A stretch of DNA of 64,000 nt from Trueperaceae bacterium (lineage in GTDB: Bacteria; Deinococcota; Deinococci; Deinococcales; Trueperaceae): contig JAXHLW010000012.1 of the NCBI GenBank assembly GCA_034521815.1, forward strand, positions 126,953 to 190,952. Reading direction: 5' to 3'. The position numbers and the translations under genes were made by a program. Below the pieces are notes generated by a model that saw only the letters and a list, made by a program, of their open reading frames with translations, had not been told where the DNA came from and did no database searches. Each line of letters opens with the position of its first letter. The stretch's first letter is position 1. This document shows, piece by piece, positions 3,299 through 44,449 of this stretch.

Positions 3299-3862
3299 TC
3301 AGTCCCGTGTGCCGCTCGTGACGAGACGGACGTGCCGGAAGCTGCGTGCCGCCGCGTCGAACGGCGCCCAGTCGAAGCTCTCGTAGCGGCCGATCCGGTA
3401 GGTGCCGCCGGGCGCCTCGATCAGGTAGCCGCTCTCCTCGTAGGGGGTGCCGCCGGGCGTCTCGTAGAGCGAGGTGACGCGCAGGCCGGAGGTCGCGGCG
3501 TCGCCGAAGGTGAGCGGCTCGGTCGTCGCGTCGACGGGGAACGACTCCTTCAGCGCGCGCGGCAGGTCGCGGCCGGGGAGGAAGGTGATCGTCGCGTCGG
3601 GGACGGTGGGCTCGCCGCCAAAGAAGCCGTGCAGGAACCACTGACCGCCGGCCGGAGCCAGGGCGTGGCTGGGCGGCAGCTCGATCAGGAAGCCTTGATC
3701 GCTGTCGACCCAGGCGATCCAGTCATTGGGCGTGGTCGGAGGGCCGGTTTCGGCGCCTGGCGAGGCGGGATCGGCTGCGACGGCGGGACCGACGACGACC
3801 ATGAGCCAGGCCGCAGCCAGCAGGAAAGAGCGCGCAAGACCGGTCTCGAACGGAGGGTTCAT
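3299..3862 (-). CDS. Hypothetical secreted protein
   Basis: Signal-peptide-like FLLAAAWLMVVVGPAVAA; start chosen at ATG 3862. Confidence 0.6.
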   Translation of the reverse strand: MNPPFETGLARSFLLAAAWLMVVVGPAVAADPASPGAETGPPTTPNDWIAWVDSDQGFLIELPPSHALAPAGGQWFLHGFFGGEPTVPDATITFLPGRDLPRALKESFPVDATTEPLTFGDAATSGLRVTSLYETPGGTPYEESGYLIEAPGGTYRIGRYESFDWAPFDAAARSFRHVRLVTSGTRD

Positions 3863-4006
3863 GGTCCGAGCATCCGACGTGCCGCCCCCAGCGGTCAACC
3901 CACCGCGGGTGCGATGCGTCCGCGGCAGCTCCGCGAGGCGGCATCGGACAGAAGCCGCCTCGAAACGGGGACATACAGCCGATAACCAGCGTGATAGCGT
4001 CTGATG

Positions 4007-4309
4007 ATGCCGAGCTTCCACTTCGAGCTGTACGTCGCGGGGGACGCCCCCCGTTCACGTACGGCGGTGCGTTCCCTGACGGAGCTGTGCGAGGAGCGCC
4101 TGAGCGGCCGCTACGAGCTGGACGTCATCGACGTGTTGGCGCACCCCGAGCGGGCGGAGCAAGCCAAGATCTTGGCGACCCCGACACTGCTGAGGCTGCG
4201 TCCAGCGCCACGCGTCCGCATCGTCGGCGATCTCAGCCTGACGGCGAACGTGGTGGCAGGACTCGGACTCGACGGCGAGGACGAAGGCGACGAGAGGGAC
4301 GACGCATGA
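4007..4309 (+). CDS. kaiB: KaiB-family protein
   Basis: FELYVAG, YELDVIDV, ILATPTL and RIVGDLS KaiB motifs; leaderless TAGCGT-N6-ATG; stop overlaps the kaiC ATG. Confidence 0.93.
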   Translation: MPSFHFELYVAGDAPRSRTAVRSLTELCEERLSGRYELDVIDVLAHPERAEQAKILATPTLLRLRPAPRVRIVGDLSLTANVVAGLGLDGEDEGDERDDA

Positions 4310-5910
4310 CGAAGATGGAGCGGAAGCGCGCGGAGAAGGTGCCCAGCGGTATTCCCGGGCTGGACCTCGTCTCCAAAGGGGGCTTGCCGTCCGCACGCTC
4401 CGTGGTCGTGGCCGGCACCTCCGGAAGCGGCAAGACGGTGTTCGGGGCGCAGTTCCTCGCGGCCGGGATCACGGAGATGGGCGAGCCCGGCGTGTTCGTC
4501 ACCTGCGAGGAGTCGCCGGAGGACATCCGGGCCAACATCGCCAGCTTCGGCTGGGACGTTCCTCGCTGGGAGGAGGAGGGCACCTGGCGTTTCGTGGACG
4601 CCTCCCGGAATCTGGACGACGTGCCGGTCCGTGCCGGCGGGTACGACCTGGCGGCGCTGCTGGCGCGGATCGAGGACGCCGTCGCCCGCGTGGGGGCGAA
4701 ACGTGTCGTCGTCGATTCCCTCGACGCGCTCTTCAGTCGGTTCGAGGGCGACGCCGCCTTTCGGCACGAGCTGCACCGCGTCATCGGCCTGCTGAACTCG
4801 TTGGGCGTGACGACCGTGCTCACCGCCGAACGCGACTCCGACTACGGGGCCAACTCCCGGCGCGGGGTCGAGGAGTTCGTCGCCGACAACCTGATCCTGC
4901 TCCGCAACGTCCTGAGCTCCGAGCGCCGCCGCCGCACGCTGGAGATCGTGAAGTTCCGTGGCGCGACGCACGACAAGGGCGAGTTCGGGTTCTCCATCAC
5001 CCCGAAGGGGATCTCGGTCATCCCGCATCTCGACATCGGGCACGATCGCGTCATGTCGAACGATCGCCTGTCGATCGGCAACCCCGACGTCGACGCGATG
5101 TGCGATGGCGGGATCTTTCGCGATTCGGTCATGCTCGTGTCGGGAGCGGCGGGCACCGGCAAGACGCTCCTCACCGCCGCGTTCGTGGACTCGGCCGCGA
5201 GGGACGGAGAACGCTGCCTGGTGTTCTCTTTCGAGGAGCGGCGCGAGCAGTGGTTCCGCAATGCGAAAGGCTGGGGCTACGACTTTCACCAGCTGGAGCA
5301 GGACGGGCTGTTGAAGGTCGTGAGCGACTACCCGGAGGTCGCGACCCTCGAGGATCACCTGTTGGCGATCACGGCGGAGGTCGAGACGTTCAAGCCGCAA
5401 CGCATCGCCATCGACAGCCTGTCGGCCCTGGAGCGGGTGGCCACGCCCGACTCGTTCCGGAAGTTCGCCGTGAGCCTGAGCGCCTACCTGAAGCACCACG
5501 GGATCACCAGCCTGTTGACGTCGACGACGCCCACCTTCCTGGGCGGCGCCTCGCCCAACGAGGCGCATCTGTCGACCGTGACCGACCTCATCATCCTGCT
5601 GCGGCACACCGAGATCGGAGGCGAGCTGCGGCGCGGCCTGACGGTGCTCAAGATGCGCGGCTCGCGCCACGACCACGGCGTCCGCGAATTCACGGTCGAC
5701 GAGAACGGGATGACCTTGGGCGCGCCGTACGAGACACCCTTCGGCCTCACGAAGGAGATCGGCGTCCTTCGGCCGAGTACGCTCGATGTCACGGACGCGG
5801 AAGTGGACGAGGACGAGGACGCGGAGGAGGACGCAGACGCGAACCCCGACGGAGAAGCGAACGCCGACACGGGAGAAGGGCCGGACACGGACGAAGATTC
5901 CTGGCGATGA
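4306..5910 (+). CDS. kaiC: Double-domain KaiC ATPase/autokinase
   Basis: CI: GTSGSGKT, TCEES, KFRG; CII: GAAGTGKT, SFEER, AIDSLSAL, HLSTVTD phosphosite pair, KMRG; ATGA overlaps at both ends. Confidence 0.95.
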   Translation: MTKMERKRAEKVPSGIPGLDLVSKGGLPSARSVVVAGTSGSGKTVFGAQFLAAGITEMGEPGVFVTCEESPEDIRANIASFGWDVPRWEEEGTWRFVDASRNLDDVPVRAGGYDLAALLARIEDAVARVGAKRVVVDSLDALFSRFEGDAAFRHELHRVIGLLNSLGVTTVLTAERDSDYGANSRRGVEEFVADNLILLRNVLSSERRRRTLEIVKFRGATHDKGEFGFSITPKGISVIPHLDIGHDRVMSNDRLSIGNPDVDAMCDGGIFRDSVMLVSGAAGTGKTLLTAAFVDSAARDGERCLVFSFEERREQWFRNAKGWGYDFHQLEQDGLLKVVSDYPEVATLEDHLLAITAEVETFKPQRIAIDSLSALERVATPDSFRKFAVSLSAYLKHHGITSLLTSTTPTFLGGASPNEAHLSTVTDLIILLRHTEIGGELRRGLTVLKMRGSRHDHGVREFTVDENGMTLGAPYETPFGLTKEIGVLRPSTLDVTDAEVDEDEDAEEDADANPDGEANADTGEGPDTDEDSWR

Positions 5911-6753
5911 GCAGGCGCTCGCGTGCCCCCGATCCGGATCAGCTGCGGATCATCTACGATCGGATGACGGACGGCGTCCTCGTCATCGACGATGGCGGGA
6001 TCATCCTGGCGGCCAACCCGGCGGCCAGGGGGATGCTGCCGGAGGGGGACTCCGGGCTGGAGGGCGAGGTGTTCGGGTTTCCGATCGCGGACCGTCGCGC
6101 GGTGGTGATCGAGATCCTTTCGCCCGGCGGTGTCGTACGGACCGTGGAGATGCGCGTCTCTCACCTCGAGTGGCGCGGGGAGCCGGCCCGGCTTCTGATC
6201 CTGCGTGACATCACCGAACAGACGGCACTGCTTCAACGCCTGCATCGCGCGGCCAACTACGACCCGGTCACCGACTTGCCGAACCGGATGCTCTTTTTCG
6301 AGCACATCGACCAGGCGATTCGTGAGGCCCGCCGCCACGACCACCGGGTGGGCCTGCTGTTCGTCGACTTCGACGGCTTCAAGCGTGTCAACGATACCTA
6401 TGGGCACGACGTCGGCGACCGTCTCCTGCGCCAGATCGGCCAGCGGCTACGACAGGCGCTTCGTGAAGAAGATCGCGTCGCACGCTTCGCCGGCGACGAG
6501 TTCCTGGTCACGCTGACGGAGGTGAAGGACGTGAACGAGGCGAGCATCGTCGCCGGCAAGCTTGCTGGCGGCGTTCGACGACCCGTTCGAGCTGGACGAT
6601 GGCGTCCTCATCACCACGTCGGCAAGCATCGGTATCGCGTTCTTCCCCGACGACGCGGTGGACGCCTCCGAGCTGCTCAGGCGCGCCGACGCCGCCATGT
6701 ACCGAGCCAAGGCGCAGGGCGGCCATCGCTTCTGTCTCCACGCCACGCCCTAG
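5907..6753 (+). CDS. PAS + GGDEF-domain protein (AGDEF) with a frameshift near 6562
   Basis: PAS (DGVLVIDDGG...LRDITE), YDPVTDLPNR, DFDGFKRVNDTYGH, REED I-site, RFAGDEF; C-terminus (SASIGIAFFP...ADAAMYRAK) continues in a shifted frame. Confidence 0.88.
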
Positions 6754-8053
6754 TCGTCAGCGCCGGCACGCTTGGCTTCGTACATGGCCCGATCGGCGGC
6801 GTCCAGCAGGGCGGCAGGCGAGGTCGCGTCGTGCGGGTAGGACGAGATTCCGATGCTTGCCGAAATGTGGAAAGGCCGTTCTGCGATCTGGAAAGGAACC
6901 TCGAGGGCATCTCGAATCTTCTGGGCGACCAGCTCGACATCGTCGCGATGCTGGGCTCCGGTGATGATCACGGTGAACTCATCGCCGCCATGACGGGCGA
7001 CCGTATCTTCCTCCCGGACGCATTCGGAAAACCGCTGGGCCACCTCGCTCAGCAATGCGTCCCCGACTTCATGGCCGAACGAATCGTTGACGTCCTTGAA
7101 GCCATCGAGATCCACGAACAGCACGGATAGGGGCAGGTCGCTGCGTTCTGCGTGTTTGATCTCCTGTTCCAAGCGGTCCAGGAAGAGACGACGATTCGGC
7201 AGTCCGGTCAGAAGGTCATGGTGGGCGGCGTGCTGAATCTTTTCCTCGGCGAGTGCCTGTTCGGTGATGTCCCGGAAGATACAGACCGTTGTTTCGGTGC
7301 GCTGATCCTCGTCCAGCACGGGCGCTAGCAGATAGTCGAACCGTTCGCCGCGGCCAGAAGCGAAGGTGTGGACGAACTTGCCTCGGTAGGTGGACTGGTC
7401 GGCGATCACCGTTTCCAGGTTGTGCTGCAGTTCCGAGGCGAACGGAAACTCGAGCTCGAAGAGGGATTTGCCGATGATCGCCTCGCGCTCCAGAGCGAAC
7501 AGGTCCGAGGTGGCCTTGTTCGCATAGACGAATCTGCCCTCGAGATCCAGCACGAAGACCGGATCGGGCGATGCGAGCAGAACGGCGCCGAACAACCGGG
7601 TCTCGATCTCTTTCTCGGTCGAATACTGCCTCACCGACTCGGCGACGGCCTGGTCGATCGCCTCATGGAACCTGGTGAGGTCCGCAAGCTGTCGATCGGT
7701 AACCGTTGGATGGGCCTTCGTCCAGTGTGAGACCACGCTCGCACGCAGGGCCCGAAACTCGGACGTCGTCTCCATGATGTTGAAGCCGCTGGCGAGTCGA
7801 TCGCTCCCGTGCACTTCTGCCGCGGAGTCCTCCTCATCGTCCGGCGCATGGCCTTTCGACTTGGCGTCCTGTTCCGTTTCGCTCTGGTGCGAATCGAGAT
7901 CCTCGGCGATCTCGAGAAGCATTTCCCTAGCGTGGTCGCGCAGTCCGGTCTTGCCCATGTACCTGGCAGGAAAGACCGTCTTGGCGAATGCCTCCGATCC
8001 TCGAGAATCGGGTCCATTTCCGACCGAATGAATTCGGCTAGTCCCATGTTCAT
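6750..8053 (-). CDS. RsbRD_N-like + PAS + GGDEF diguanylate cyclase with a frameshift near 7997
   Basis: N-terminus MGLAEFIRSEMDPILED joins EAFAKT...LRDHAREMLLEIAEDL...EFRALRASV (RsbRD_N-like); PAS; HDLLTGLPNR, RHGGDEF. Confidence 0.87.
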
Positions 8054-8124
8054 CGGCATCGCCCTGGCTCCTCGACGAGTCGACGCGTCCCACCGGAACG
8101 CAAGACGCATCGACCTGTACACCC

Positions 8125-8248
8125 TTCCCGTCTCGGAAGGCCTCATGGGCCACCAGCGGCGGGCGAGCCGTTCCTGGTGCCGCTGGCGAGTCCCTCATCG
8201 CGGCGCCGTCGGCGATGGCCACCGTCATCCTGATGGCGCGCAACGCGC
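8125..8248 (+). repeat. Degenerate ~125 bp copy of an internal marC segment (partner at 10571-10696)
   Basis: ggaaggcctcatgggccaccag...gagccgttcctggtgccgctggcga...cctgatggcgcgcaacgcgc occurs at both sites; this copy has indels. Confidence 0.92.
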
Positions 8249-8334
8249 AGCAGCGCCCGCGCCGAGCCCAGGGTCAGCACGTGCTGTGCACAGTTGCTCT
8301 TGCGTTCCCATGTAGCAAGCGTTCTATACTGGTT

Positions 8335-10149
8335 CTGGCGCTTTCCCTGAACGAAGCGCATCGTGCCGCCATCCTCGAAGACGCGCAAGATGCGCTGATG
8401 GTGACCGATGCAGACGGTGCGTTGCTATACATGACCGCCGCCGCCGCGCACCTCTACGGGTTCGAAGAACGAGAAGGGGCGCAGCTCGAGAGCCTCAACC
8501 TCCAGCGTTACGCGCTCGAAACCTTCGAGCTACGCACCCTTGCGGGCGATTCCGTGCCGGAGGACGAACAGCCCTTAGCGCGGGTCCTGCGGGGAGAGGC
8601 CTACCAGAACGTCGAGCTCCTCGTACGGCACCGGGAGAAGGACGAGACGCGGGTGTTCGTGTTCAGCGGGCGCACCGTGCACACCGATCCACCCATCGGT
8701 GTGCTGTGGATCCGCGACGAGACCGACCGCTGGAAGGCCGAGCGACGCTACCGCACGACGTTCGAAGCCGACCCGGCGCCCAACCTCATCGCGCGTCTCG
8801 AGGACGAGCAGATCCTCCAAGCCAATGCCGGCATGCTGGAGATGCTGGGCAGCGACAAGAGCGACATCGTCGGGACCCCCCTCTCGGAACTCAAGCTGTA
8901 TTCGAGAGACGACGGCTTGACGACGAGCCTCGACGCGCTCCGCGCTGGCGAGCGGATCCACAAGCGGAAGGCGACGCTCCGACCCTCTTCGGGCGGTGGG
9001 GAGCCCACGGACGTCCTGGTCTCCGCACGCGCCATCGAGATCGACGGCGAGCCCTGCGGCCTCTTCACGTTCATCGACGTGACGGAGCTCGAACGCAGCC
9101 AACGACAGAATGTCGAGCTCTTCGCACGAGAGACGGAAGCCCGCAAGAAGGCGGAAGCCGGTCGGGCGCGGCTGGAATCCGTCCTCGAGCAAGCTCCCGC
9201 GCTCATGGCCACCCTCGAAGGCCCCGAGCACGTCTTCACGACCGCCAACCATGAATATCGCGCGTTCTTCGCCGGCCGAGAAATCGTCGGGCGGCGGGTG
9301 ATCGACCTGCTCCCCGAGATCGAGGCTCAAGGGATCATCGGAATCCTCGACGACGTGTACCGAACGGGCGAGTCCTTCTCCAGCAAGGAGCTGCCCATCG
9401 ACCTCGACCGGCACGGCATAGGGCACGTCGAGCGTCACTACTTCAACCTGGTGTACCAACCGCTGCGCGACGACGACGACCGCACCATCGGCGTCCTGGT
9501 CAATGCCGTCAACATCACCGAGCAGGTCGAGGCGAGAAAGCGTGCGGAGTCGATGCGTGCCGAGATGGAAGCCGCCTATGAACACACCATCGAGGGGTGG
9601 GCCAGGGCGTTGGACCTGCGCGACGAAGACACGGCGGGTCACAGCCAACGGGTGACGGACATGACGGTGGCCCTGGCCAGGCAGTTCGGAATCTCGGGGG
9701 ACGCGCTGGAGGGCGTGCGCAGGGGCGCGCTGCTGCACGACATCGGCAAGATGGGCGTCCCGGACGCCATCCTGCTGAAGCCCGGCAAGCTCACGGCCGA
9801 CGAGTGGACCGTGATGAAGGGCCACACCGTGTACGGCCGTGACCTGCTGCAGCCGATCGCCTTTCTCGCGTCCGCGATCGATATTCCCTACTGTCACCAC
9901 GAAAGGTGGGATGGCACCGGCTACCCCAGGGGGCTTCGAGGAGAGGACATCCCGCTGGCCGCACGCGTCTTCGCGGTGGTGGACGTGTACGACGCGCTCA
10001 TGTCCAACCGCCCCTACCGCGACGCATGGCCCCGCGACCAGGTACTGGAGCACCTGCGAGAAGGAGCGGGAAGCCACTTCGATCCGAGCATCGTCGAGGC
10101 GTTCCTGAACATGCCGAGCGGCCAAGCCGCCACCGCCACCACCGAATAG
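8335..10149 (+). CDS. Multi-PAS HD-GYP c-di-GMP phosphodiesterase (start uncertain)
   Basis: Three PAS-like segments, then RDEDTAGHSQRV, LHDIGK, HHERWDGTGYP; the ORF-track start at 8215 belongs to the marC remnant; TATACT at 8325-8330. Confidence 0.9.
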   Translation: MALSLNEAHRAAILEDAQDALMVTDADGALLYMTAAAAHLYGFEEREGAQLESLNLQRYALETFELRTLAGDSVPEDEQPLARVLRGEAYQNVELLVRHREKDETRVFVFSGRTVHTDPPIGVLWIRDETDRWKAERRYRTTFEADPAPNLIARLEDEQILQANAGMLEMLGSDKSDIVGTPLSELKLYSRDDGLTTSLDALRAGERIHKRKATLRPSSGGGEPTDVLVSARAIEIDGEPCGLFTFIDVTELERSQRQNVELFARETEARKKAEAGRARLESVLEQAPALMATLEGPEHVFTTANHEYRAFFAGREIVGRRVIDLLPEIEAQGIIGILDDVYRTGESFSSKELPIDLDRHGIGHVERHYFNLVYQPLRDDDDRTIGVLVNAVNITEQVEARKRAESMRAEMEAAYEHTIEGWARALDLRDEDTAGHSQRVTDMTVALARQFGISGDALEGVRRGALLHDIGKMGVPDAILLKPGKLTADEWTVMKGHTVYGRDLLQPIAFLASAIDIPYCHHERWDGTGYPRGLRGEDIPLAARVFAVVDVYDALMSNRPYRDAWPRDQVLEHLREGAGSHFDPSIVEAFLNMPSGQAATATTE

Positions 10150-10296
10150 CGGCCGTCCACCAGAACCTAGGGCGTGTGCCCACTCGCGTGGTTGGTCGGT
10201 GATGACGCCGAGATGGGCATCCGTCCCATCACGCGGTACGCTCTTCGCGACGGGATCGAGCTTCGCGACGGGATCGAGCCAGCAGGAAGTGGCGGC

Positions 10297-10890
10297 ATGG
10301 AGTTCGGAGCCAGCGTGTGGTCGGCAGCGACCGTGCTGCTGTTCGTGATGGACCCGTTCGGCAACGTGCCGACCGTGCTGGCGCTGCTGCGCGACGTCGA
10401 CCCGTCCAGGCGGCGACGCGTCATCGCCCGCGAGCTGCTGATCGCGCTGGGCGTGCTGATGGGGTTCCTGTTCGTGGGTCAGGCGATCCTGGACTTCCTG
10501 GGCTTGCAGCGCGAGTCGGTCACGATCGCGGGCGGGATCGTGCTGGGGATCATCGGCTTGCGGCTGATCTTTCCCCGTCCGGAAGGCCTCATGGGCCACC
10601 AGGCGGCGGGCGAGCCGTTCCTGGTGCCGCTGGCGATCCCGCTGATCGCCGGGCCGTCGGCGATGGCGACCGTGATCCTGATGGCGCGCAACGCGCCCGA
10701 TCAGGCGGGCAGCGCGGCCCTGGCGATCCTGCTGGCGTGGGGATTGACCGCAGCGGTGCTGCTGGCCGCGCCGTTCCTCTACCGGCTGCTGCGCGAGCGT
10801 GGCCTGCAGGCGGTGGCACGCCTGATGGGCATGCTGCTGATCATGATCGCGGTGCAGATGGTGCTGAACGGGCTCGATTCGGCGCTCTGA
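10297..10890 (+). CDS. marC: MarC-family integral membrane protein
   Basis: LFVMDPFGN, VPLAIPLIAGP and RLMGMLL motifs. Confidence 0.92.
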   Translation: MEFGASVWSAATVLLFVMDPFGNVPTVLALLRDVDPSRRRRVIARELLIALGVLMGFLFVGQAILDFLGLQRESVTIAGGIVLGIIGLRLIFPRPEGLMGHQAAGEPFLVPLAIPLIAGPSAMATVILMARNAPDQAGSAALAILLAWGLTAAVLLAAPFLYRLLRERGLQAVARLMGMLLIMIAVQMVLNGLDSAL

Positions 10891-15445: not shown

Positions 15446-16545
15446 GGAGCGGTTCTGTCCGCGATCCCGTAGCGGTCGGCCCAGGCGTGCAGCGCGCTCG
15501 GGAGGGGAGGCACCTCGCCGCCCAACGCGCCCACGATCGCGACGGTGTTGGCGTGCAGCATGCCGATGTACGTGCCTTCGGCGGTGCCCGGCTCGCCCAT
15601 GGCGTCGGAGTAGAGCGTGCCGCCCAGCTCGACCGACGCGCCCATGTCGGCGGTCGCGTCCAGGACCGCTTGGATCGTGCGCGGGTTGATCGTCGTCTCG
15701 ATGAAGACGGCGGGAACGCCGCTGCGGGCGATGGTCTCGGCGGTGCCGCGGATGTCGGCGATCGACGGCTCGGCGTCGGTGCTGACGCCCTGGATGCCGA
15801 CCACGTCGAGCCCGTAGGCGCGGCCGTAGTACGCGAACGCGTCGTGCGCCGTGACCAGCACGCGGTTCGCCTCGGGCACGGTCGCGACGGCCTCGTCGAT
15901 CCAGTCGTGGAGGGCGCCCAGCTCCGCGTCGTGCGCGGCGGCCCTCTCGCGCACGCCCTCCGCGCAGCCGGGCGCGAGCTCGGCCAGCGCCGCGGCGATC
16001 GGCTCCAGCGTTCCGGCCCACAGCGACACGTCCATCCAGACGTGGGGGTCGACGCCGTAGGCGCTGGAGACCCGGATCCGGCGCTCGGCGGGCACGCCCG
16101 CCTCGGACACCGCGAGCGTCGACGTCCGTTCGCCCAGGCGCTCCAGGACGTCGCCCAGCTGGCCTTCGAGCGTCAGGCCGCCGTAGAGGATCAGATCCGC
16201 GCGGCTCAGCTGGCGGACGTCGCCCGATGTGGCCTGGTACAGGTGCGGATCGACGCCGGGGCCCATCAGGGAGACGACGTCGGTGCAGGCGCCCCCGATG
16301 GTCGCAGCGGTGTCGCCGACCATGCCGACCGTGGCGACGACGCGAACGGGGGCGTCCACGGGACCGTCCTGAGCCAGCGCCGGACCGAACAGCGCGAGGC
16401 CGAACAGCGTCAGGCCGAACAGCGTCAGGCCGAACGGTGTGAGCTTGGACAGCGCTAGGCCGGCGAAAAGCGGGCGACGGGCGAGAAGGCGGGCGCGGCG
16501 TCGATTGCGCCTACCCTCGTGAGATTTTACGGCGTCCCTAAACAT
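15442..16545 (-). CDS. Metal ABC transporter substrate-binding protein (TroA/MntA-like)
   Basis: GPGVDPHLY, DPHVWMD, TAHDAFAY and LYSDAMG cluster A-I ligand motifs; the signal peptide contains 15-bp GLTLF repeats. Confidence 0.93.
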   Translation of the reverse strand: MFRDAVKSHEGRRNRRRARLLARRPLFAGLALSKLTPFGLTLFGLTLFGLALFGPALAQDGPVDAPVRVVATVGMVGDTAATIGGACTDVVSLMGPGVDPHLYQATSGDVRQLSRADLILYGGLTLEGQLGDVLERLGERTSTLAVSEAGVPAERRIRVSSAYGVDPHVWMDVSLWAGTLEPIAAALAELAPGCAEGVRERAAAHDAELGALHDWIDEAVATVPEANRVLVTAHDAFAYYGRAYGLDVVGIQGVSTDAEPSIADIRGTAETIARSGVPAVFIETTINPRTIQAVLDATADMGASVELGGTLYSDAMGEPGTAEGTYIGMLHANTVAIVGALGGEVPPLPSALHAWADRYGIADRTAP

Positions 16546-16580
16546 GCGATCACGGTAGTCCGGACGCTCGTGGCTGTCAA
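16525..16580 (-). promoter_or_regulatory. Sigma-A promoter TTGACA-N17-TACCGT-N6-ATG with a DtxR/MntR-like operator over the first codons
   Basis: TTGACA 16580-16575, TACCGT 16557-16552; imperfect palindrome TTTACGGCGTCCCTAAA at 16526-16542. Confidence 0.75.
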
Positions 16581-16638
16581 GCGCCGCCGCGGGAATCCAG
16601 GTCACCCATCAGGATCGCGACGCAAAGTACAGTCGGGC

Positions 16639-17340
16639 ATGACGACGACGGAGCGTCCCTGGTTCGTGACCGACAGCGGGTTCAGCCGTCGCCTGGACGA
16701 AGCGGATCGCAGCGTGTTCATGCGCGTCTGCCCGGAGCGACGCTACGCGAGAGACGAGCACATCTTCCGCGAGGGCGACCCCGCGACGTCGCTGCACGTC
16801 GTCGCCAAGGGCCGCATCAAGCTCACCCGCCTCACGCCCGACGGGCGCGAGCGGATCCTCGCCATCGTCGGACCGGACGACATGATCGGCGAGGCGTTCC
16901 TTCGCCCCGACGCCGAGTACCTCGCCGACGCCGTGGCGTTGGGCGACGACGTGGTCACCTGCCCGATGTCGCGTGGGCAGTTCCAGCAGCTCTCGCTGCA
17001 GGCGCCGACGTTCGTGCTGGCGTTCGCCGAGATCCTGGCGGGCAACCTGTTCCGCTGCCGCGATCAGCTCACCGGGGGGTACGCCCCGATCAAGGTGCGC
17101 GTCGCGCTCACGCTGCTCGACCAGGCCCGTCGCTTCGGGCACCCCGCGGCCGACGACGAGGACTGGCTGGAGCTCGAGACCGAGCTTCGTCACGAGGAGA
17201 TCGCCTCGATGATCGGGGCGACACGCGTCTCGGTGTCCACCTCCGTGGCCGACCTGCGCAACGACGGCCTGGTCGAGGGCACGCGGGGCCGCTACCGGCT
17301 CCACGCCCCGTCGATCGAGGCGCTCGAGCTCGAGCTCTGA
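16639..17340 (+). CDS. Crp/Fnr-family transcriptional regulator
   Basis: IFREGDPA...GPDDMIGE cNMP-like barrel; HTH HEEIASMIGATRVSVS; TACAGT-N5-ATG. Confidence 0.92.
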   Translation: MTTTERPWFVTDSGFSRRLDEADRSVFMRVCPERRYARDEHIFREGDPATSLHVVAKGRIKLTRLTPDGRERILAIVGPDDMIGEAFLRPDAEYLADAVALGDDVVTCPMSRGQFQQLSLQAPTFVLAFAEILAGNLFRCRDQLTGGYAPIKVRVALTLLDQARRFGHPAADDEDWLELETELRHEEIASMIGATRVSVSTSVADLRNDGLVEGTRGRYRLHAPSIEALELEL

Positions 17341-18646: not shown

Positions 18647-19327
18647 GCGAGGTCTCCTTGGGGGTGGCGCCCATCTCGTGGACGTCGCTCCTCGGCCGGC
18701 AACGACGACTCGAGGTCGAGGAACAGGCGGGTCAGCACGGGATCGAACTGGCGTGCCGCGGCGCGCTGGATCTCATCTCGCGCGGCAGCGCGCGACCACG
18801 CCTCCTTGTACGGTCGAACGCTCGTGAGCGCGTCCCACACGTCGACGATCGTGAAGATGCGCGCTCCCAGCGGGATGGCGTCGCTCGCCAACCCGTCTGG
18901 ATAGCCGGTCCCGTCCCACCGCTCGTGATGATGACGGACGACCTCCAGCGTCTCGGCCGGCAACGACGGCACGTCGGCCAGCATCCGCACGCCGTCGGCG
19001 GCGTGCTCGCGGATGCGCTCACGCTCGCGATCGCTCAGGCGCCCCGGCTTGAGCAGGATCGCGTCGGCACCGGCGTAGCTTTCCGATGTCGTGCAGGTAG
19101 GCCCCCCAACGCACCGCGCGGCGCACCGAGCGATCGAGCCCCAGCCTTTCGGTGACGCGGTCCGTCCACGCGACGACGCGGTCGGTGTGGCCGCGGGTCT
19201 CGTAATCGCGAAGCTCCAACGCGCGGCCCAACGCCAGCACCGTGCCCTCGAACGTCTCGTGGATCTCGCGGACGCACCCCGCGTGCGCCCGCTCGATCGA
19301 GCGGCTGGCGTCCTTGGGGCGGGGCAT
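18643..19327 (-). pseudogene. Stand-alone HD-GYP protein, frameshifted near 19075
   Basis: RDYETRGHTDRV...LHDIGKL, then in a shifted frame DAILLKPG...HHERWDGTGYP; its stop overlaps the flavodoxin ATG. Confidence 0.82.
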
Positions 19328-25733: not shown

Positions 25734-25918
25734 GCGGAGCGCCTCGACGGCGAGCGACGCGAGGGACGCGAGGGACGTGAGGGACGCGAGGGACGGTCCA
25801 GCGACGTGGCGAGCGAAGGCCGGATCACGCCGTGACGCTAGCATGCGCTCGCTGGCCGGGCATCGAGCGAGGAACGCCGACCACGGTCGTGCAGGCGCTG
25901 GGATCGGTACGATGCGTC

Positions 25919-27502
25919 GTGGCCCAAGGTGCGTCCCTCGAGGCGTTGCGCGATACGTTCGAACGACAACGGTACGCTGAAGCGCTGCGCGACGCGGAGC
26001 GCGCCCTGGACTGGTCGGACGCCTGTTCCGACGAGGTGCGCGAGCTGCACCGGATCGCGTTGCGGTCCGCGTTCTACCTGGGCGATACGGAGCTGGCCCA
26101 GCGGCACGCGATGGCCGGCCTGCGCGTGGCGCGCGAGCGGAACGACCTTCCCGCGATGGCTCAGGCGCACAACGACCTCGCCACGCTGTTCGGCGCGGCG
26201 ATGCTGACCAGCGAGGCGCTCGAACACCTGTGGCAGTCGGTGCACCTGCGTCAGCGAGCTGGTCAGGAGGTCGACGCCGCCACGCTGAACAACCTCGCGA
26301 ACGTGTACCTGAGTCTTGGACAGCACGACGAGGCGATCGGTCTGTTGGACCGCGCCATCGACCGGTTCCGTGCCCACGGCGACGAGGCGAGCGTGGCGCT
26401 GGCGCTGGCCAACTCCGGCCGCGCGCAGGTGCTGGCCGGCCGGGCGTCGTGGTCGATCGCGCCGCTCGATACCGCTCTCGAGACGTTCGAGCGGCTGGGC
26501 CGGCACGGCGACGTCGCGACGACGCTGGCCAAGCTGGGCGTCGCGCACGGTGCGGCTGGAACGCCCGAGCGGGCGCGCCACTCGTTCGAGCGTGCGCTGG
26601 CCCTGCACGAAGGCGGGCACGCCGCGGTGTTCGCGCGAGAAACGCATCAGGGCTACGGATCGTGGGCGCTGGAGGCCGGCGAGGCCCCGTTGGCGCTGGA
26701 GCAGCTGAGCGCGGCAGCAGCTGCGTACGACGATGCCGACGCGCTCGCCAGGTCCGGCGTGATGGAGCCGTTGTCGCGCGCGCTCGAGGCGGTCGGTCGT
26801 CCTCAGGACGCGCTCGCCGCGTTGCGGCGACACGTCGAGGGGCAGGCCTCGCTGGCCTCGGCCACCAACGACGCCAGGGTCAGGGTCCGTCTGCTGGAGC
26901 TGGAGCTCGGCGTGGCCGGCGAGCAGGAGATCGCCCAGCTGCACGCCCTGGAGCTCACGCGCACCAACAGGGAGCTGCGAAGCGAAGCCCAGCGGCTGGA
27001 ACAGCTCAGCCTGACCGACCGCCTGACCGCCCTGCCCAACCGTCGCGACCTGGACGCGCGACTGGACGCCGAGGTCGAGCGCTCGCACCGACACGACCGG
27101 CCGCTGGTCCTGGCGCTTCTCGATCTCGATCAGTTCAAGGCGGTGAACGATCGCTTCAGCCACGACGTCGGGGATCAGGTGCTCGTTCGCGTCGGACGAC
27201 TGCTGCGCGAGCATCTCCGCGCGAACGACGTCGCGGCGCGTTGGGGCGGCGAGGAGTTCGCGCTGCTCCTGCCCGAGACCGACATGGACGAGGCGGCGGT
27301 GGTGTTGGAGCGTGTGCGATCGGTCGTGGCCGATGCGGACTGGAGCGTGATCGCCGACGGGTTGAGCGTGACGGTCAGCATCGGAGCGGCGTCGCTCGCG
27401 CCGGGGAGCGGTGCCGCCGACATGCTGCGACAGGCCGATCGGCGGCTCTACGCGGCCAAGGACGCGGGTCGCGACCGGATCGTCGCGAACGCGCCCACCT
27501 GA
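25919..27502 (+). CDS. TPR-repeat diguanylate cyclase
   Basis: TPR-like helices (LNNLANVY), TDRLTALPNRR, RAND I-site, RWGGEEF; TACGAT-N5-GTG used for the start. Confidence 0.9.
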   Translation: MAQGASLEALRDTFERQRYAEALRDAERALDWSDACSDEVRELHRIALRSAFYLGDTELAQRHAMAGLRVARERNDLPAMAQAHNDLATLFGAAMLTSEALEHLWQSVHLRQRAGQEVDAATLNNLANVYLSLGQHDEAIGLLDRAIDRFRAHGDEASVALALANSGRAQVLAGRASWSIAPLDTALETFERLGRHGDVATTLAKLGVAHGAAGTPERARHSFERALALHEGGHAAVFARETHQGYGSWALEAGEAPLALEQLSAAAAAYDDADALARSGVMEPLSRALEAVGRPQDALAALRRHVEGQASLASATNDARVRVRLLELELGVAGEQEIAQLHALELTRTNRELRSEAQRLEQLSLTDRLTALPNRRDLDARLDAEVERSHRHDRPLVLALLDLDQFKAVNDRFSHDVGDQVLVRVGRLLREHLRANDVAARWGGEEFALLLPETDMDEAAVVLERVRSVVADADWSVIADGLSVTVSIGAASLAPGSGAADMLRQADRRLYAAKDAGRDRIVANAPT

Positions 27503-32536: not shown

Positions 32537-33268
32537 TCAGCGTCGCGCGGTCGACGCCAGCTCGCGAAGCCCGTCGCGGTCGGCGTCGATCACGCGGCGA
32601 CCGTCCATGCGCACCAGTCCCTGCTGCGCCAGCCGGGACAGGTTGCGGCTCGCCAGCTCCGGAACGGTCCCCAGCGAGGCCGCCAGCTCGGCGTTGGTGG
32701 GCAGGTCGAACGGCAGGCCCGCGTCGGCCCGATCGGCCAGCAGAAGCGCCAAGCGCTGCACCACCTCCTGGAACGACAGGCGCTCGATCAGCCCGACGAG
32801 TTTCCTGAGGCGTCGACCCAGCGTGCCCAGCAGCGCCCTCGACAGGCGCGGCCGGGCGTCGAGAAGCGCCTCCAGCGCGGTTTGAGGCAAGGCCAGGGTC
32901 TCGCTGTCGAGCTCGGCCTCGGCGTGCGCGGGGTACGGCCCGCCGTCGAACGAGGGGAGCTCGGCGACGGCGTGGTACGGCGTCTCCTGGGTCAGGACCA
33001 GCGGCCGTCCCGAGCGTGGCGACGCGACCTGGACGATGATCTTGCCGCGGACGACGACGTGGAGCGCCTCGGGCCGATCGCCGGCGAGGAACAGCAGCGT
33101 TCCCGCGGCGTGGTGACGGCGCTCGGCGATGCCGGCCAGGGCAGCCAGCTCGTCGTCAGGAAGATCGGCGAACAGCGGGCAGCGCGCCAGAACCTCGGCG
33201 TCGGTCATCGCGGCGTCTGACTTCGCACCGTCGGTCTTCGCGCCGTCGGTCTTCGCGCCGTCGCTCAT
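32537..33268 (-). CDS. Crp/Fnr-family regulator (Dnr-like)
   Basis: CPLFADL...LFLAGD...AELPSFDGGPYPA; HTH NAELAASLGTVPELASR; ATGA overlap with nsrR. Confidence 0.9.
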   Translation of the reverse strand: MSDGAKTDGAKTDGAKSDAAMTDAEVLARCPLFADLPDDELAALAGIAERRHHAAGTLLFLAGDRPEALHVVVRGKIIVQVASPRSGRPLVLTQETPYHAVAELPSFDGGPYPAHAEAELDSETLALPQTALEALLDARPRLSRALLGTLGRRLRKLVGLIERLSFQEVVQRLALLLADRADAGLPFDLPTNAELAASLGTVPELASRNLSRLAQQGLVRMDGRRVIDADRDGLRELASTARR

Positions 33269-33726
33269 CCCGCCGTCGGGAGCGCCTCCGGCGCCTCGGG
33301 CGCGCCGTCGGTCGGCGCGTCCGCGAGGTCGCCGACCCGGACCCCCGCCAGCACGGCACGGATCTCGCCGGCTGCGCGGTGGTACGCCACGTTCAGGAGG
33401 CAGGCGCCCTTGCGGCGGGTGGTGACGCACTGCACCTGCGCCTGGCAGGTGTCCATCACGAACGGTCCCGAGACCGCCTCGATCACGTCGAGGAGCGTCA
33501 CCTCGGCGGTGTCGACCACCGGGCGCACGCCGCCGTGGCGGCCCATGCGGCTGCTGAGCAGGCCGGCGTCCACCAGGCGGCGCAGCACCTTGGCCAGGAA
33601 CGCGGGAGGCATCTCGAGGTCGCGCGCCATCTGCGCGGCGCTGGCGCCGGGATTCTCCGACGCGTAGATCAGCGCGTGGATGGCGTAGCTCTCCTCGCGC
33701 CGCAGCAGGGTGCGAAGGCCGTCCAT
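33265..33726 (-). CDS. nsrR: Rrf2-family Fe-S regulator, Thermus-type NsrR-like
   Basis: LRTLLRREESYAIHAL...PPAFLAKVL...GRHGGV; C-x5-C-x8-C cluster ligands. Confidence 0.8.
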   Translation of the reverse strand: MDGLRTLLRREESYAIHALIYASENPGASAAQMARDLEMPPAFLAKVLRRLVDAGLLSSRMGRHGGVRPVVDTAEVTLLDVIEAVSGPFVMDTCQAQVQCVTTRRKGACLLNVAYHRAAGEIRAVLAGVRVGDLADAPTDGAPEAPEALPTAG

Positions 33727-35015
33727 CACGTCGCGCGCCCGAGCTTCGTCAGGGACCGGTCTACGGCACGCTCGAACCGCTGCAGCGCCTGATCGACGTC
33801 GTCCTCCGTGGCGACCAGCGGAGGAATCCAGCGGATCACGTTGCCGGCGGGGCCGCAGCCCAGGATCAGCATCCGCTCGTCCAGGCAGGCGCGCAGGACG
33901 TGTTTGGCCAGCTCGGCGTCCGGTCGGTCGTCGCGGTGGAGCTCGACCCCCACCATCAGCCCGGGGCCGCGCACCTCGGCCTGAACGCCGTCGCGGCCCA
34001 CGGTCCGCCGCAGGCCGTCGCGCAGCTGCTCGCCGCGCTCGGTGGCGGCGGCCGGGAGATCCTCGTCGACGATCACGTCGATCGTGGCGCTCGCGGCGGC
34101 CAGCACCACGGCGTTCCCGCCCCCGTAGGTGCCCCCGTGGGTGCCCGGCTCCCAGCGCGACATGGTGTCCGCAGGCGCGCCGATCGCCGAGATCGGAAAC
34201 CCCGAACCCAGCCCCTTGGCCATGATCAGCACGTCGGGCCGGACGTTCGCGTGGTCGACCGCGAACATCGCGCCGGTCCGCCCGAACCCGGACTGGACCT
34301 CGTCCAACGCCAGCAGGATGCCGTGCTCGTCGCAGCGCTCGCGGAGGCCGGCCAGGAAGCGCGCCGGCGCGGGCACGTAGCCACCCTCGCCCAGGACCGG
34401 CTCGATCACCATCGCGGCGGTCTCGTCCGGAGCGGTCTGGCTGGCGAAGAGCAGATCGAGCTGCGCCAGCGCGAAGTCGATGGCGCGCTCCTGATCCATG
34501 CCCAGCTGCAGGGCGTAGGGGAACGGCGCGACGAACGTCCCGGCCGGAAGCGGCTGGTAGCGATGGCGGTACGCGGTCTTCGAGGTCGTCATCGCCATCG
34601 CCTGGTGGGTACGACCGTGGAAGCTGCCCTGGAACACGATCAGGTTGGAGCGTCCGGTGGCGTGCCGGGCCAGCTTCACCGCGGCCTCGACCGCCTCCGC
34701 GCCGGAGTTCGAGAAGAAGAACGTGTCGATCCCCGGCGGCGTGACGCGCTCCAGCCGCTCGGCCAGCGCGTCGGCTTGCGGCAGGCGCACGATGTTCGCC
34801 TGCCCGAAGAACAGGCGTTCTGCCTGCTCGCGGACCGCGGCCACGACGCGTGGATGCGCGTGGCCGGTGTTCGTCACGCCGATCCCGCTGGTCATGTCCA
34901 GCCAGCGGTGGCCCTGGTCGTCCTCGAGCCAGGCCCCTTGGCCGCGGACGGGCCGGACGTCGGTCAGATGCGTCCAAACGGGCGACAGGGTGGAGGAGGC
35001 GGCCAGCTCGCTCAT
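33726..35015 (-). CDS. Class III PLP aminotransferase (GabT-like)
   Basis: NSGAEAVEAA, SFHGRT, EPVLGEGG, DEVQSGFGRTG, MAKG, HGGTYGG. Confidence 0.93.
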   Translation of the reverse strand: MSELAASSTLSPVWTHLTDVRPVRGQGAWLEDDQGHRWLDMTSGIGVTNTGHAHPRVVAAVREQAERLFFGQANIVRLPQADALAERLERVTPPGIDTFFFSNSGAEAVEAAVKLARHATGRSNLIVFQGSFHGRTHQAMAMTTSKTAYRHRYQPLPAGTFVAPFPYALQLGMDQERAIDFALAQLDLLFASQTAPDETAAMVIEPVLGEGGYVPAPARFLAGLRERCDEHGILLALDEVQSGFGRTGAMFAVDHANVRPDVLIMAKGLGSGFPISAIGAPADTMSRWEPGTHGGTYGGGNAVVLAAASATIDVIVDEDLPAAATERGEQLRDGLRRTVGRDGVQAEVRGPGLMVGVELHRDDRPDAELAKHVLRACLDERMLILGCGPAGNVIRWIPPLVATEDDVDQALQRFERAVDRSLTKLGRAT

Positions 35016-37400: not shown

Positions 37401-38096
37401 CTACGCCCCTAGCGCTCCTCGGCGCGACAGCCCTTCGCGGCCGACCGGGCGGTGATCCCGCGCCGCCAACAGCGCCGCGTTCCGGCGCCGTCCGGGTCCG
37501 AAGCGCAGGCGGGCGGCCGTGGTGTGGTCGCGGTGCCCGAGAAGGAACAGCCGCTGCTGCGCGATCCAGGCGGGGCGGGGAAGGGCGCCGCCGGCGGCCA
37601 TCAGCTCCAGCCGCAGATCCTCGTTCCTGCGCAGGAACGCCTTCGAGGCCAGGACCGCCATGTCGGCGTCCGCGACGATTCGTTCCAGCGTCGTGCGGGG
37701 CCGCTGCGGAAGCTTGGTGGCGAGGATCATGCCGGCGATGCGCTCGATCGCGTCCGAATCGAAGCCGCGGCTCGGGAGGAGACGGCGCACCATCTCGACC
37801 GCGGCCTGCTCGTGCCCGGCGCGACGCTCCAGGAAGCCCAGATCGTGAAACGCGGCGGCGGTCTCGACCAGCGCCCGCTCACGGCCGGACAGGCGCAGGT
37901 CCTCGGCCAGGGCGCGCGCTGCGGGAAGCACCTCGTCGAAGGTGTGCCGGGCGTCGTGGTAGCGAAGCGCCGGATCCAGGCCCGTGGCGAGAGCGGACGC
38001 CTGCTCCAGGGCGCCCGCGAGGTCCAGCCCCGAGGACGGGTCCTCGGAGGGTTCCTGGGACGGGGCCGAGATCGGTGCCGGCGACGATGCTCGCAT
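37401..38096 (-). CDS. HD-domain metal-dependent phosphohydrolase
   Basis: YHDARHT, FHDLGF, GHE, ATKLPQRP, DADM; TAGGCT-N6-ATG. Confidence 0.88.
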   Translation of the reverse strand: MRASSPAPISAPSQEPSEDPSSGLDLAGALEQASALATGLDPALRYHDARHTFDEVLPAARALAEDLRLSGRERALVETAAAFHDLGFLERRAGHEQAAVEMVRRLLPSRGFDSDAIERIAGMILATKLPQRPRTTLERIVADADMAVLASKAFLRRNEDLRLELMAAGGALPRPAWIAQQRLFLLGHRDHTTAARLRFGPGRRRNAALLAARDHRPVGREGLSRRGALGA

Positions 38097-38178
38097 CGTC
38101 CAAGCCTACCCGGCGCGCTCTTACATTAGGATGACTGGACAGGTCGGGACGTTCGTCCCTGGAAGTCGAGGTACAGCG

Positions 38179-41100
38179 GTGAGCGATGCAGCGCGTGCGC
38201 TCGGTGCGTTCATTCCCCAAGACCGCCGTCGGGCGTTGGCGGGGGGGCCGTCGGTCGCGGATCGCGAGCGTGGCGCGGCCGTGTTCGCCGACCTGTCCGG
38301 GTTCACCGCGCTCACCGAGCGGCTCGCGAATCGGCTGGGTCCGCTGCGCGGGGCGGAAGAGCTGGGGGCGTGGCTGCGGCGGATCTTCGATCCGATGATC
38401 GCCTGCGTCGAGGCCGAGGACGGCAGCGTCCTGGGCTTCGCCGGCGACGCGATCACCTGCTTCTTCGGCGGGGACGACGGGAGCCGCGCGGTCCGTGCCG
38501 CCGAGCGAATGCAGCAGGAGGTCGCCCTTCTCGAAGCCGCGCGGGCCGCCGACGGCGAGCGCGTCGGGGTGCGACTCAAGGTCGCCATCGCCGTCGGCGA
38601 GGTGCGCCGCTTCGTCGTGGGCGATCCCGCCCGGAGGTCGTGGGACGTGATGGCGGGGGCCACGCTGGTGCGGACCGCCGCGATGGAGGAGAGCGCCAAG
38701 CCGGGCGAGGTGGTCGTCGACGCGGCGGCGGCACGGGCCGCCGGCCGCGAGCCGATCGAGATCCGCGGCGACGCCTACGTGCTGCGCGCTGCCGACGACG
38801 CCGACCGGGCGGACGGTGCGACCGGCGACGCCGGTGACGGTGCCGAGGACCCAGGGGTCGCGAACGCTCCGGTCGCGAACGCTGCGGTCCCGAACGCTGC
38901 GAGCGCGAACCCTGCGAGCGCAGCGGAGGTGGCCCCGTCGGGCGCCGACGCCTACCTCGACCACGCCGTCGCGCGGCCCCGCGACGAGCTGTGGCCCGAC
39001 GTCGCGACGGCCTCGCCGTGGGCGCCCGAGGTGGCGCGCGACCGGGTCGCCCACGACAGTGCGCCGCTGGGCGACTTCAGGCCTGCCGGCGCCGTGTTCG
39101 TCTCCTTCGGCGGGATCGACTGGGACGGCGATCCGCAGGCCGGAGAGCGGCTGGACCTGTTCCTGCGCCACGTGCAGCGCGAGCTGGACGTCGCGGGAGG
39201 CACGCTGGTGCAGGTGACCGTCGGGGACAAGGGCAGCTACCTGTACGCCGCCTTCGGCGCGCCGCGGGCGCACGGGGACGATGCGCGCCGGGCGGTCGCC
39301 TTCGCGATGCGGCTGGTCGCGGCGCGCGGTCCCGAGATCGGCCAGGTGGACGGGCTGCGGGCCGGCGTGACGTACGGCGCGATGTACACGGGGGCGTACG
39401 GCGGCGTCACCCGCAAGACGTACGGCGTGCTGGGCCCCAAGACGAACCTGGCGGCGCGCCTGATGAAGCGAGCCGGCGTCGGCGAGGTGCTGTGCGATCC
39501 GGAGGCCGCCCGGCGCTCGCGGCGTGCCGTCCGGTTCTCGGCGCTGCCGGCCGAGACGTTCAAGGGGGTCGGCAAGCCGGTCGCGCTGCACCGGGCGGAA
39601 CGGGAGGCGACCGAGGACGAGCTGGGCGCGACCCCGATGTTCGGCCGCGACGCCGAGCGGATCGACGCCAGCGGGCTGATCGTCCAGCTGGGCCACGGCG
39701 AGGGCGGCTACCTGCGCTACGAGGGCGAGGCGGGGATCGGAAAGACGCGGCTGCTGACGTGGATCGCCGAGGCCGCCGCCGCTCGCAAGGTCCGGTCGCT
39801 GCGCGGTACGGCGCAGGGCGACGGGAGCGAGGCCGGCTACGCCCTCTGGCGAGGACCGTTCGCGCAGCTGCTGGACCTGCCGGAAGGATCGTCGCTGGAC
39901 GCGGTGCGAGAGGCGCTGATCCGGCGGGGCCAAGCGGCCGACGGCGGCGCGGCCGAGGCGATGACCTCGCTGCTGACGCCGGGCGGCGTCGAGGGAACGC
40001 GCGACGGTGCTGCCCGGCGCGAGGCGGTCGCGAGCGCGGCGCTGGCCACGGTGGACCACGCGCTGGACCAGGGGCCGCTGCTGTTCCTGCTGGACGACGT
40101 GCATCGGATCGACGAGCGCTCGCGCGACCTGCTGGCCCGGATCGCCCAGCGGATGCGCGCGCATCCGCTGGGCATCGTGGCGGTCGGCCGTCCGACGTCC
40201 GGCGCGGCGGCCGACGCGTTGGACGCGCACCTTCCCGGCCCGGCCCGGCGACTGTCGGGCCTCGAGGCGGAAGAGTCGCGCATGCTGATCGCGGGAGCGT
40301 TGAGCGTGCCCGCGATGTCCGTGCCGTACCCGGTCGCGACGGCGATCCACGAGCGCGCGGGCGGGGTTCCGGTCCTGGTCGAGGAGATCGTGCGCGACCT
40401 CGTCGAGCGCGACGCGCTCCGGGCCGAGCGCAGCTGGCGAGGGGTGGGGCGCGATGCACGTGGGCGTGCGCCCAGGCAGAGCGAGACCCGGGTGACGTTC
40501 GACGAGGCCGCCCTGCGCGATCTGGAAGGCGGCCTGGACGCGCTGCTGCTGGCCCGGATCGATCGGCTCTCGATCAGCGAGCGCACCGCGATGAAGACCG
40601 CCGCGGTGGTGGGCCGGACCGCCGAGCACGATCCCCTGGCGCACCTGCTCGAAAGCGACCCCGCCGCGCTGGACGCGGCCCTCGCGCCGCTCGAGAGCCC
40701 CGACATGCTCGAGGCGCTGTCCGGCGCGCACCGCTTCCAGCAGACGGTGCTGCACGACGCGGCGTACGAGAACCTGCTGTTCGAGCAGCGGCGGACGCTG
40801 CACCGCGGGATGAGCGCCTGGTACCTGCGGCGACTTCAAGCGGGCGAGGAGGTCGACCCGGCGCGGATGGCGTACCACTTCTTCCACGCGACGGAGGGCG
40901 AGGACGATCCCGAGCTGGTCCGGCCGGCCCTGGCGGCGCTGGAGAGCCTGGCGCGACGTCACCAGGCGGCCGGAGCGCACGACGAGGCGCTGGCCGCTCT
41001 GAAGAAGGCGGATCGCCTGGTGCCGCAAGGGCCGTCGTGGGACGAGGACCGGGCCCGGGTCGCGATCCGGGCCGGGTCTCTGCACGAGCGGATGGGGCGT

Positions 41101-44421: not shown

Positions 44422-44449
44422 CTTGGCTCCACCGCAGGATCCGATCGAC

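Follow-up and report, generated by a model that had tools for sequence, protein, structure and literature searches.

A 64,000-nucleotide (nt) stretch of contig JAXHLW010000012.1, referred to here as the window, carries three forward-strand genes encoding KaiB, KaiC, and a PAS-GGDEF protein of the type that makes cyclic di-GMP (c-di-GMP). The kaiB gene (4004-4309; Pfam KaiB, E 1e-23) encodes 101 amino acids (aa) and has an alternative ATG at 4007, kaiC (4306-5910) encodes 534 aa, and the third gene (5907-6753) comprises ~281 codons on read-through, as judged from the alignment with orthologues at five related loci, L001 to L005. Reading of the open reading frames (ORFs) places ATGA stop/start overlaps at 4306-4309 (kaiB/kaiC) and 5907-5910 (kaiC/PAS-GGDEF), so that the chaining of the three genes pointed out in an earlier note on this DNA is borne out, as are its kaiB and full two-domain kaiC. 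The divergent intergenic region 5' of kaiB (3866-4003) is, from the ORF layout, the presumed promoter region. The host is a member of the Trueperaceae, the best named matches of KaiC (83%) and phosphoenolpyruvate carboxykinase (85%) both carrying that name, in agreement with the earlier description of the organism as Deinococcota-like. The nearest relatives of its KaiC are P0002 (89%) and P0003 (83%). Neither KaiA nor a HisKA/HATPase or receiver domain was found among the 193 window ORFs (7 + 88 + 98) scanned with Pfam, a set limited, outside six gap zones, to ORFs that pass a composition filter; this set likewise includes no SasA- or RpaA-like gene, so the absence of kaiA, sasA, and rpaA noted previously holds within this scope. 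A tblastn search detected no second KaiB- or KaiC-like sequence within the window.

KaiC is composed of two tandem RecA-like KaiC stretches (Pfam PF06745, E 8e-112), and its residues 6-476 align with solved KaiC structures (8zn5, E 4e-168; 1u9i, E 7e-142; 8dba, E 2e-94). Walker A motifs are present at 37 (GTSGSGKT) and 280 (GAAGTGKT), with EE pairs at 68-69 and 310-311, and the alignment with solved KaiC shows that the phosphosite equivalents S423 and T424 are kept; the reference phosphorylation sites we take to be S431 and T432, with T426 as a helper. The window KaiC is nearer to KaiC of Synechococcus elongatus (1u9i, 477 bits) than to that of Rhodobacter sphaeroides (8dba, 321 bits), and it ends in a highly acidic tail of ~40-55 residues (within 478-534) that most relatives (~505 aa) lack. 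KaiB has a full-length match to solved KaiB 2qke (residues 4-100, E 3e-21), and its G86 aligns with G89 of that structure, a position occupied by Ala in the nonswitching KaiB of Legionella (PMC11665890). A glycine at this position is at most suggestive of a KaiB compatible with fold switching.

The gene starting at 5907 encodes a short N-terminal PAS domain and a GGDEF domain (Pfam), as the earlier note had read it, but its ORF is not intact. Frame 0 (5907-6563) runs through the A-site RFAGDEF, while the remainder of the GGDEF domain, LAAFDDPF...SASIGIAFFPDD...AMYRAKAQGG, lies in frame +1 (6562-6753, stop at 6751-6753). The break corresponds to one extra T in the forward-strand AAGCTTG at 6562-6563: when aligned with the DNA of L001, this part of the window shows 93% identity across 190 nt and a single 1-nt gap, at precisely this T. 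In the assembled sequence the reading frame covers no more than GGDEF profile positions 1-110 of 161, and the final third of the domain is lost. The orthologues at all five of the loci L001 to L005 align as unbroken proteins of 281-286 aa. An I-site, the motif RxxD placed five residues before the A-site, is kept in the window (REED) and in every one of these orthologues; two of them (L002 and L003) have GGDEF as the A-site, the other three (L001, L004, and L005) sharing AGDEF with the window. With the frameshift, no working cyclase is encoded here, and the cyclase output would be dead in this genome unless the insertion is an assembly error.

The linkage of the three genes was surveyed, as the earlier note had proposed, with a KaiC alignment of 20 sequences, which was run against 185,579 species genomes; of the 568 stretches that matched, 545 were confirmed, and the best 80 loci were kept. 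We call a gene downstream if it lies directly 3' of kaiC on the same strand; a candidate exists at 78 of the 80 loci, L039 having none and kaiC leaving the contig in L050. The order kaiB-kaiC-PAS-GGDEF is conserved at all five closest loci (L001 to L005, from the Trueperaceae clade, with KaiC 63-82% identical), the spacing between kaiC and PAS-GGDEF being 1-2 nt in L002 to L005 and an ATGA overlap in L001. In a KaiC tree of 80 rows, from which the partial L001 was left out, one clade unites the window with L002 to L005 at a Shimodaira-Hasegawa-like approximate likelihood ratio test (SH-aLRT) value of 100. Apart from these three genes, L001 to L005 have nothing in common with the window or with one another, and a second GGDEF gene, an HD-GYP gene, and a shared flank gene are all lacking; Pfam analysis of 31 flank ORFs from L002 to L005 revealed no recurring fourth gene, and a comparison of 12 window proteins with the 80 loci gave only GGDEF-domain matches plus two isolated ones. 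The conserved unit consists of three genes only and is native to a clade of Trueperaceae.

Beyond this clade, the downstream position is mostly filled by other signaling genes. According to Pfam, histidine kinases occupy it at 39 of the 78 loci, PAS-PAS-GGDEF-EAL proteins at 16 (15 Chloroflexaceae/Oscillochloridaceae loci and L078), PAS-GGDEF proteins at 5 (L001 to L005), PAS-only proteins at 2, and other genes at 16, so that a signaling gene directly follows kaiC on the same strand in the window and at 62 of the 78 loci. The GGDEF-EAL group is found elsewhere on the KaiC tree, nested among kinase-type Chloroflexota, and at least 4 changes on the tree are needed to account for the GGDEF-containing outputs.

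These diverse proteins are connected by their PAS domain. Thirty histidine kinases encoded next to kaiC supplied the PAS domains for a profile, which was built from these alone and gives the window PAS 95.6 bits, those of L001 to L005 98-110 bits, and the first PAS of the Chloroflexaceae GGDEF-EAL proteins 94-119 bits; 15 control PAS domains, among them those of two neighboring genes of the window described below (one from a convergent GGDEF gene and three from an HD-GYP gene), reach no more than 34.5 bits. Two expected matches, L044 and L078, scored only 23 and 20 bits. In a six-frame scan, a match of at least 66 bits occurs at 75 of the 80 loci, including 45 of the 50 loci outside the profile, with the next best at 34 bits or less; the five loci without a match are L037, L044, L078, and the cyanobacterial L069 and L075. 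The same scan of the window gave a single match (5940-6254, forward strand, 89 bits), followed by a next best of 22 bits. By this measure, the PAS of the third gene belongs to a distinct, Kai-linked subfamily. Since other phyla have this PAS joined to histidine kinases or to GGDEF-EAL enzymes, the output domain seems to be interchangeable.

At loci with an unrelated gene 3' of kaiC, the Kai-linked PAS is usually encoded upstream in the opposite orientation; genes of this kind, scoring 102-143 bits, were seen in L025, L026, L047, L048, L050, L055, L057, L064, L070, L071, and L076. A second Kai-linked PAS gene (123-143 bits) is located upstream of kaiB in L023 (5481-5825) and in 15 other Chloroflexaceae-type loci, which, together with the downstream PAS-GGDEF-EAL gene, gives two candidate partners at these kaiBC loci. 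The subfamily also extends to cyanobacterial GAF-multi-PAS-GGDEF-EAL proteins: P0413 (residues 395-507, 121 bits) and P0420 (445-556, 111 bits) each contain exactly one Kai-linked PAS, their remaining PAS domains scoring 25 bits or less. These proteins come from a search of longer proteins with the PAS alignment, which yielded 440 proteins with E <= 1e-10 among 8000 candidates. As a count of output types this list was rejected because its top ranks are multi-PAS proteins with summed domains, and it was used only to choose P0411, P0413, P0420, P0480, and P0495 for per-domain scoring.

PAS domains often bind small ligands, and operon membership alone is no proof of contact, so the PAS of the third gene could itself be the sensor of a ligand or redox signal, with the cyclase merely co-expressed with kaiBC and regulated without physical contact with either Kai protein. 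This alternative has to contend with a narrow PAS subfamily standing beside kaiBC at those 75 loci from many phyla, with sister PAS domains at 34 bits or less, and with a structural model of KaiB bound to the PAS that passes where its controls score 0.00; we consider it improbable.

The model, a complex prediction of the kind that the earlier note had suggested, was computed for KaiB (41-row alignment) and the PAS (44-row alignment). All three runs scored 0.71, as against 0.00 for the best of three controls. The pass mark is reached by 116 of 157 solved complexes and by 2 of 215 mismatched pairs, counts that apply only roughly to alignments of our own making such as these. All contacts (100%) recur from run to run, and the predicted local distance difference test (pLDDT) value of the partner is at least 84. 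The predicted interface is formed by PAS residues 54-62 and 66-71 and KaiB residues 55-61 and 71-77, and includes the invariant residues G57 and P59 of the PAS and A58, T59, P60, T61, G75, and D76 of KaiB. The contact of the PAS with KaiB is thus a prediction whose support comes from the model, and the PAS is very probably the part of the third protein that would meet the Kai complex. A solved structure of KaiB with a PAS domain is not known to us, nor is one listed for the KaiB entries in our PDB comparison.

An experimental counterpart exists in S. elongatus, where KidA, a protein with four PAS domains followed by GGDEF-EAL, binds fold-switched KaiB through its PAS domains (Kim et al. 2022, PMC9478674). 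Another conceivable dock is KaiC itself, on either its CI or its CII ring, as cyanobacterial SasA binds KaiC directly (PMC11665890). Against docking on KaiC stand the passing KaiB-PAS model and the binding of KidA to KaiB (PMC9478674). Genome context bears on the question little: kaiB is present at the 75 loci with the PAS, except for L078-like cases, and because kaiB and kaiC occur together, the loci do not discriminate between the two as partner. We judge a KaiC-docked PAS to be improbable.

As the best explanation, held with slightly more belief than doubt, we propose a three-gene module in which a KaiB-docked PAS gates the cyclase. KaiC would be a competent ATPase and autokinase whose state is set by ATP/ADP and time, and KaiB would bind KaiC in one of these states. 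The N-terminal PAS would then serve as a Kai-specific dock for KaiB, probably for KaiB sitting on the KaiC ring, and docking would gate the diguanylate cyclase, for example by joining GGDEF domains, whereby the Kai state would be translated into c-di-GMP. The output direction and the gating mechanism of the PAS-GGDEF protein are what we infer. The readout of Kai state as c-di-GMP put forward in the earlier note gains from the conserved linkage, the Kai-specific PAS, and the KaiB-PAS model, and loses from the frameshift of the assembled cyclase.

Several observations weigh against this explanation. In the assembly the Kai-linked cyclase has a frameshift at 6562/6563, and its A-site is AGDEF, not GGDEF; one AGDEF enzyme is reported to be active (PMC3974145), while further ones are degenerate. 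In KaiC, the position equivalent to T426 is N418, Thr being the majority residue in the 20-sequence alignment. The complex score is a model confidence, not a measurement, and it leaves the KaiB fold that is used undiscriminated. An Rfam scan of the whole window found no c-di-GMP riboswitch, the sole match being a tRNA at 63927-63998. The link may also run in the direction of an input instead of an output, the effect of KidA on the period being input-like.

The last point leads to a different role for the PAS-GGDEF protein, that of a modulator or input of the KaiBC timer, which would shift KaiB-KaiC kinetics or feed back c-di-GMP or GTP status. The PAS domains of KidA shorten the period, its GGDEF/EAL part being dispensable for the effect (PMC9478674), and lowered c-di-GMP alters both period and phase in S. 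elongatus (PMC13001216); moreover, the frameshifted product in the window would retain the entire PAS domain. However, the same PAS is carried by output enzymes at 60 of the 78 loci (39 histidine kinases, 16 GGDEF-EAL, and 5 GGDEF proteins), which fits an adaptor for outputs, and in vitro c-di-GMP showed no direct action on the S. elongatus Kai proteins (PMC13001216). A modulator is, in our view, unlikely, and the KaiB-docked PAS gating the cyclase is retained as the preferred explanation.

With regard to known systems, the Trueperaceae unit is a minimal, GGDEF-only form of an established class of kaiBC-PAS-output operons. The novelty implied by the earlier note was therefore overstated: a GGDEF/EAL protein immediately 3' of kaiC-kaiB was described by De Luca et al. 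in 2011 (PMC3164672) and the KaiB-binding KidA in 2022, and Kim et al. point out that, outside cyanobacteria, kaiBC often share an operon with PAS genes (PMC9478674). KidA resembles the third gene in being a PAS-bearing c-di-GMP enzyme tied to KaiB, the PAS contact being experimental in KidA and modeled here; it differs in that the Trueperaceae protein has one PAS, GGDEF only, ~281 aa, a place in the kaiBC operon, no KaiA, and a noncyanobacterial host. P0413 and P0420 are a possible link between the Kai-linked PAS and proteins of the KidA type. The GGDEF/EAL context of De Luca et al. is echoed in our set by the PAS-PAS-GGDEF-EAL proteins of 15 Chloroflexaceae/Oscillochloridaceae loci and L078, whereas the Trueperaceae proteins combine one PAS with GGDEF alone, are one-third as long, and go with a separate, well-supported KaiC clade.

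The operons of kaiBC with a PAS histidine kinase in Pseudomonadota and other groups (e.g., BRADO1478-1481, PMC3899966) agree with the window in gene order and in the PAS subfamily with which the downstream gene begins; at our kaiBC-kinase loci L006 to L013 an ATGA overlap is frequent and KaiA is lacking, as it is here. The difference lies in the output, which is a diguanylate cyclase instead of HisKA-HATPase. KaiBC systems may run as hourglass timers, for example in R. sphaeroides (PMC11665890). The SasA-RpaA pathway is similar in principle in that an output enzyme docks on the Kai complex by means of a dedicated N-terminal domain, an arrangement that is predicted in our case. In SasA this domain has a KaiB-like thioredoxin fold and binds KaiC in competition with KaiB, unlike in the module studied here, whose PAS is predicted to sit on KaiB. 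In the literature covered by our search, outside of which were subscription journals and closed supplements, we found no Deinococcota or GGDEF-only kaiBC module and no report defining the PAS subfamily.

Two further c-di-GMP genes follow the module. On the reverse strand, a convergent RsbRD_N-PAS-GGDEF gene with the motif RHGGDEF (6750-8047; Pfam) shares the CTAG at 6750-6753 with the Kai-linked gene, the overlap of the two stops leaving no room for a terminator. The GGDEF domains of these two convergent genes were also seen to form inverted repeats with 73-85% complementarity. The gene and its domains are as the earlier note described, but a 1-nt deletion at codon ~19 (7994-7996, reverse strand; one G missing from a G run) puts 18 codons at the start into another frame relative to homologues. 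P0121 (68% identity, 448 aa) and four other homologues begin 18 residues earlier, opening with M-x-L-x-x-F-I...W-E-x-F-A, whose counterpart in the window lies in the other frame. The RsbRD_N domain scores 17.1 bits, below the Pfam cutoff of 24.3, because its first part sits in that frame.

On the forward strand, the multi-PAS HD-GYP gene of the earlier note (8215-10149; Pfam), a phosphodiesterase gene, comprises three PAS regions and an HD-GYP domain whose HDIGK and HHERWDGTGYP motifs are both intact; its start is uncertain, since ATG 8215 lies inside a marC remnant. This remnant (8125-8248, forward strand) is a 124-nt internal piece copied from 10571-10696 within the intact marC family gene (10174-10890, forward strand; Pfam MarC, E 9e-53), to which it is 88-100% identical in three pieces (families D10, D4, and D2) offset by 1-nt indels. 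It provides the HD-GYP ORF with its apparent start codon and is a rearrangement scar. The earlier note had grouped both genes with the module in a c-di-GMP make/break cluster, a reading that finds no support: they are absent from the related loci, with no HD-GYP-type match in L001 to L005 and one among the 80 loci (L045), neither contains the Kai-linked PAS in the profile scan, in which no other PAS of the window exceeds 22 bits, and both lie in a patchwork with the marC remnant. We regard both neighbors, the convergent GGDEF gene and the HD-GYP gene, as passengers with no relation to the conserved module.

The damage seen in the two GGDEF genes recurs elsewhere in the window. A stand-alone HD-GYP gene on the reverse strand (~18703-19249; tblastn and gap-zone scan) is broken between 19065 and 19076, with HD_5 positions 65-169 of 170 in one frame. 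Single-nucleotide frameshifts thus affect three of the five c-di-GMP genes of the window, the TPR-GGDEF gene at 25781-27499 and the HD-GYP gene at 8215-10149 being free of them. Most other Pfam-matched genes have near-full domain cover, a ZIP gene, a half MFS (major facilitator superfamily) gene, and a LutC-like gene being possible exceptions, in a census that is incomplete for genes without a Pfam match and in which split genes can fall under the ORF filter.

In two of the three frameshifts the site immediately follows an AAGCT pentamer (6558-6563 and 19077-19081), an association that could reflect chance, a mutational hotspot, or a base-calling artifact. A systematic error at AAGCT was rejected as the cause, as 49 of the 51 AAGCT sites show no break. 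It may still be that all three frameshifts are assembly or base-calling errors and that the genes are intact in the organism: each is a single-base indel, one falls in a G run, two follow AAGCT directly, and this genome is represented by one contig only. Random error would not be expected to favor c-di-GMP genes, though, and here every break is in one of them (3 of 5), most other Pfam-matched genes are near-full in domain cover, and nearly all AAGCT sites are unbroken. We regard the error explanation as a serious possibility that is nonetheless on the doubtful side; the confinement of the frameshifts to c-di-GMP genes tends to favor real decay over random error.

It is tempting to join these observations into a broader picture, which as a whole we offer tentatively and with more reserve than the module itself. 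The Kai-linked PAS would be a general KaiB-docking adaptor through which KaiA-less KaiBC timers are connected to interchangeable outputs (histidine kinase, diguanylate cyclase, or cyclase-phosphodiesterase), occurring also in cyanobacterial KidA-like proteins; the Trueperaceae unit would be the minimal natural three-protein device that links an ATPase timer or energy gauge directly to synthesis of a second messenger; and c-di-GMP signaling, including the Kai output, would be in the course of being lost in this lineage. The question touched upon is what noncyanobacterial KaiBC systems control and how their state is read. Three small soluble proteins with an easily measured product would permit full reconstitution in the test tube (KaiB, KaiC, PAS-cyclase, ATP/ADP, and GTP), and the module is a good in vitro system provided that intact orthologues are used. 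The predicted interface offers targets for mutation, namely, the FGFP motif of the PAS and the ILATPT and GDL motifs of KaiB, and the PAS subfamily provides a sequence signature by which Kai outputs could be sought in any genome. For the present genome caution is needed: in the assembly the output gene is interrupted by a frameshift, and the adjacent c-di-GMP genes are outside the system.

The region from 4 to 10 kb (4001-10000) has a G+C content of 61-69% compared to ~73% in the flanks, with the minimum over the convergent GGDEF gene. This was rejected as proof of recent transfer, as the module has a similar G+C content in L002 to L005, where the flanks are at 65-72%. A scan of 3600-10300 with a sigma-70-like consensus returned no promoter-like sites and one terminator-like site, without excess over shuffled sequences. 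The window as a whole is rich in nucleotide second-messenger genes (16459-17337, 25781-27499, 32540-33748 on the reverse strand, 37963-42039, and 42061-44613 on the reverse strand), a set comprising two Crp-like regulators, the intact TPR (tetratricopeptide repeat)-GGDEF protein with the motif GGEEF, a ~1360-aa class III cyclase-AAA-TPR protein, and a patatin-domain protein that also has two cNMP (cyclic nucleotide monophosphate)-binding domains. The half MFS transporter mentioned above (57654-58164, reverse strand; profile positions 17-184 of 347) is situated between a lutA-like gene and lutB, where its second half would have no space.

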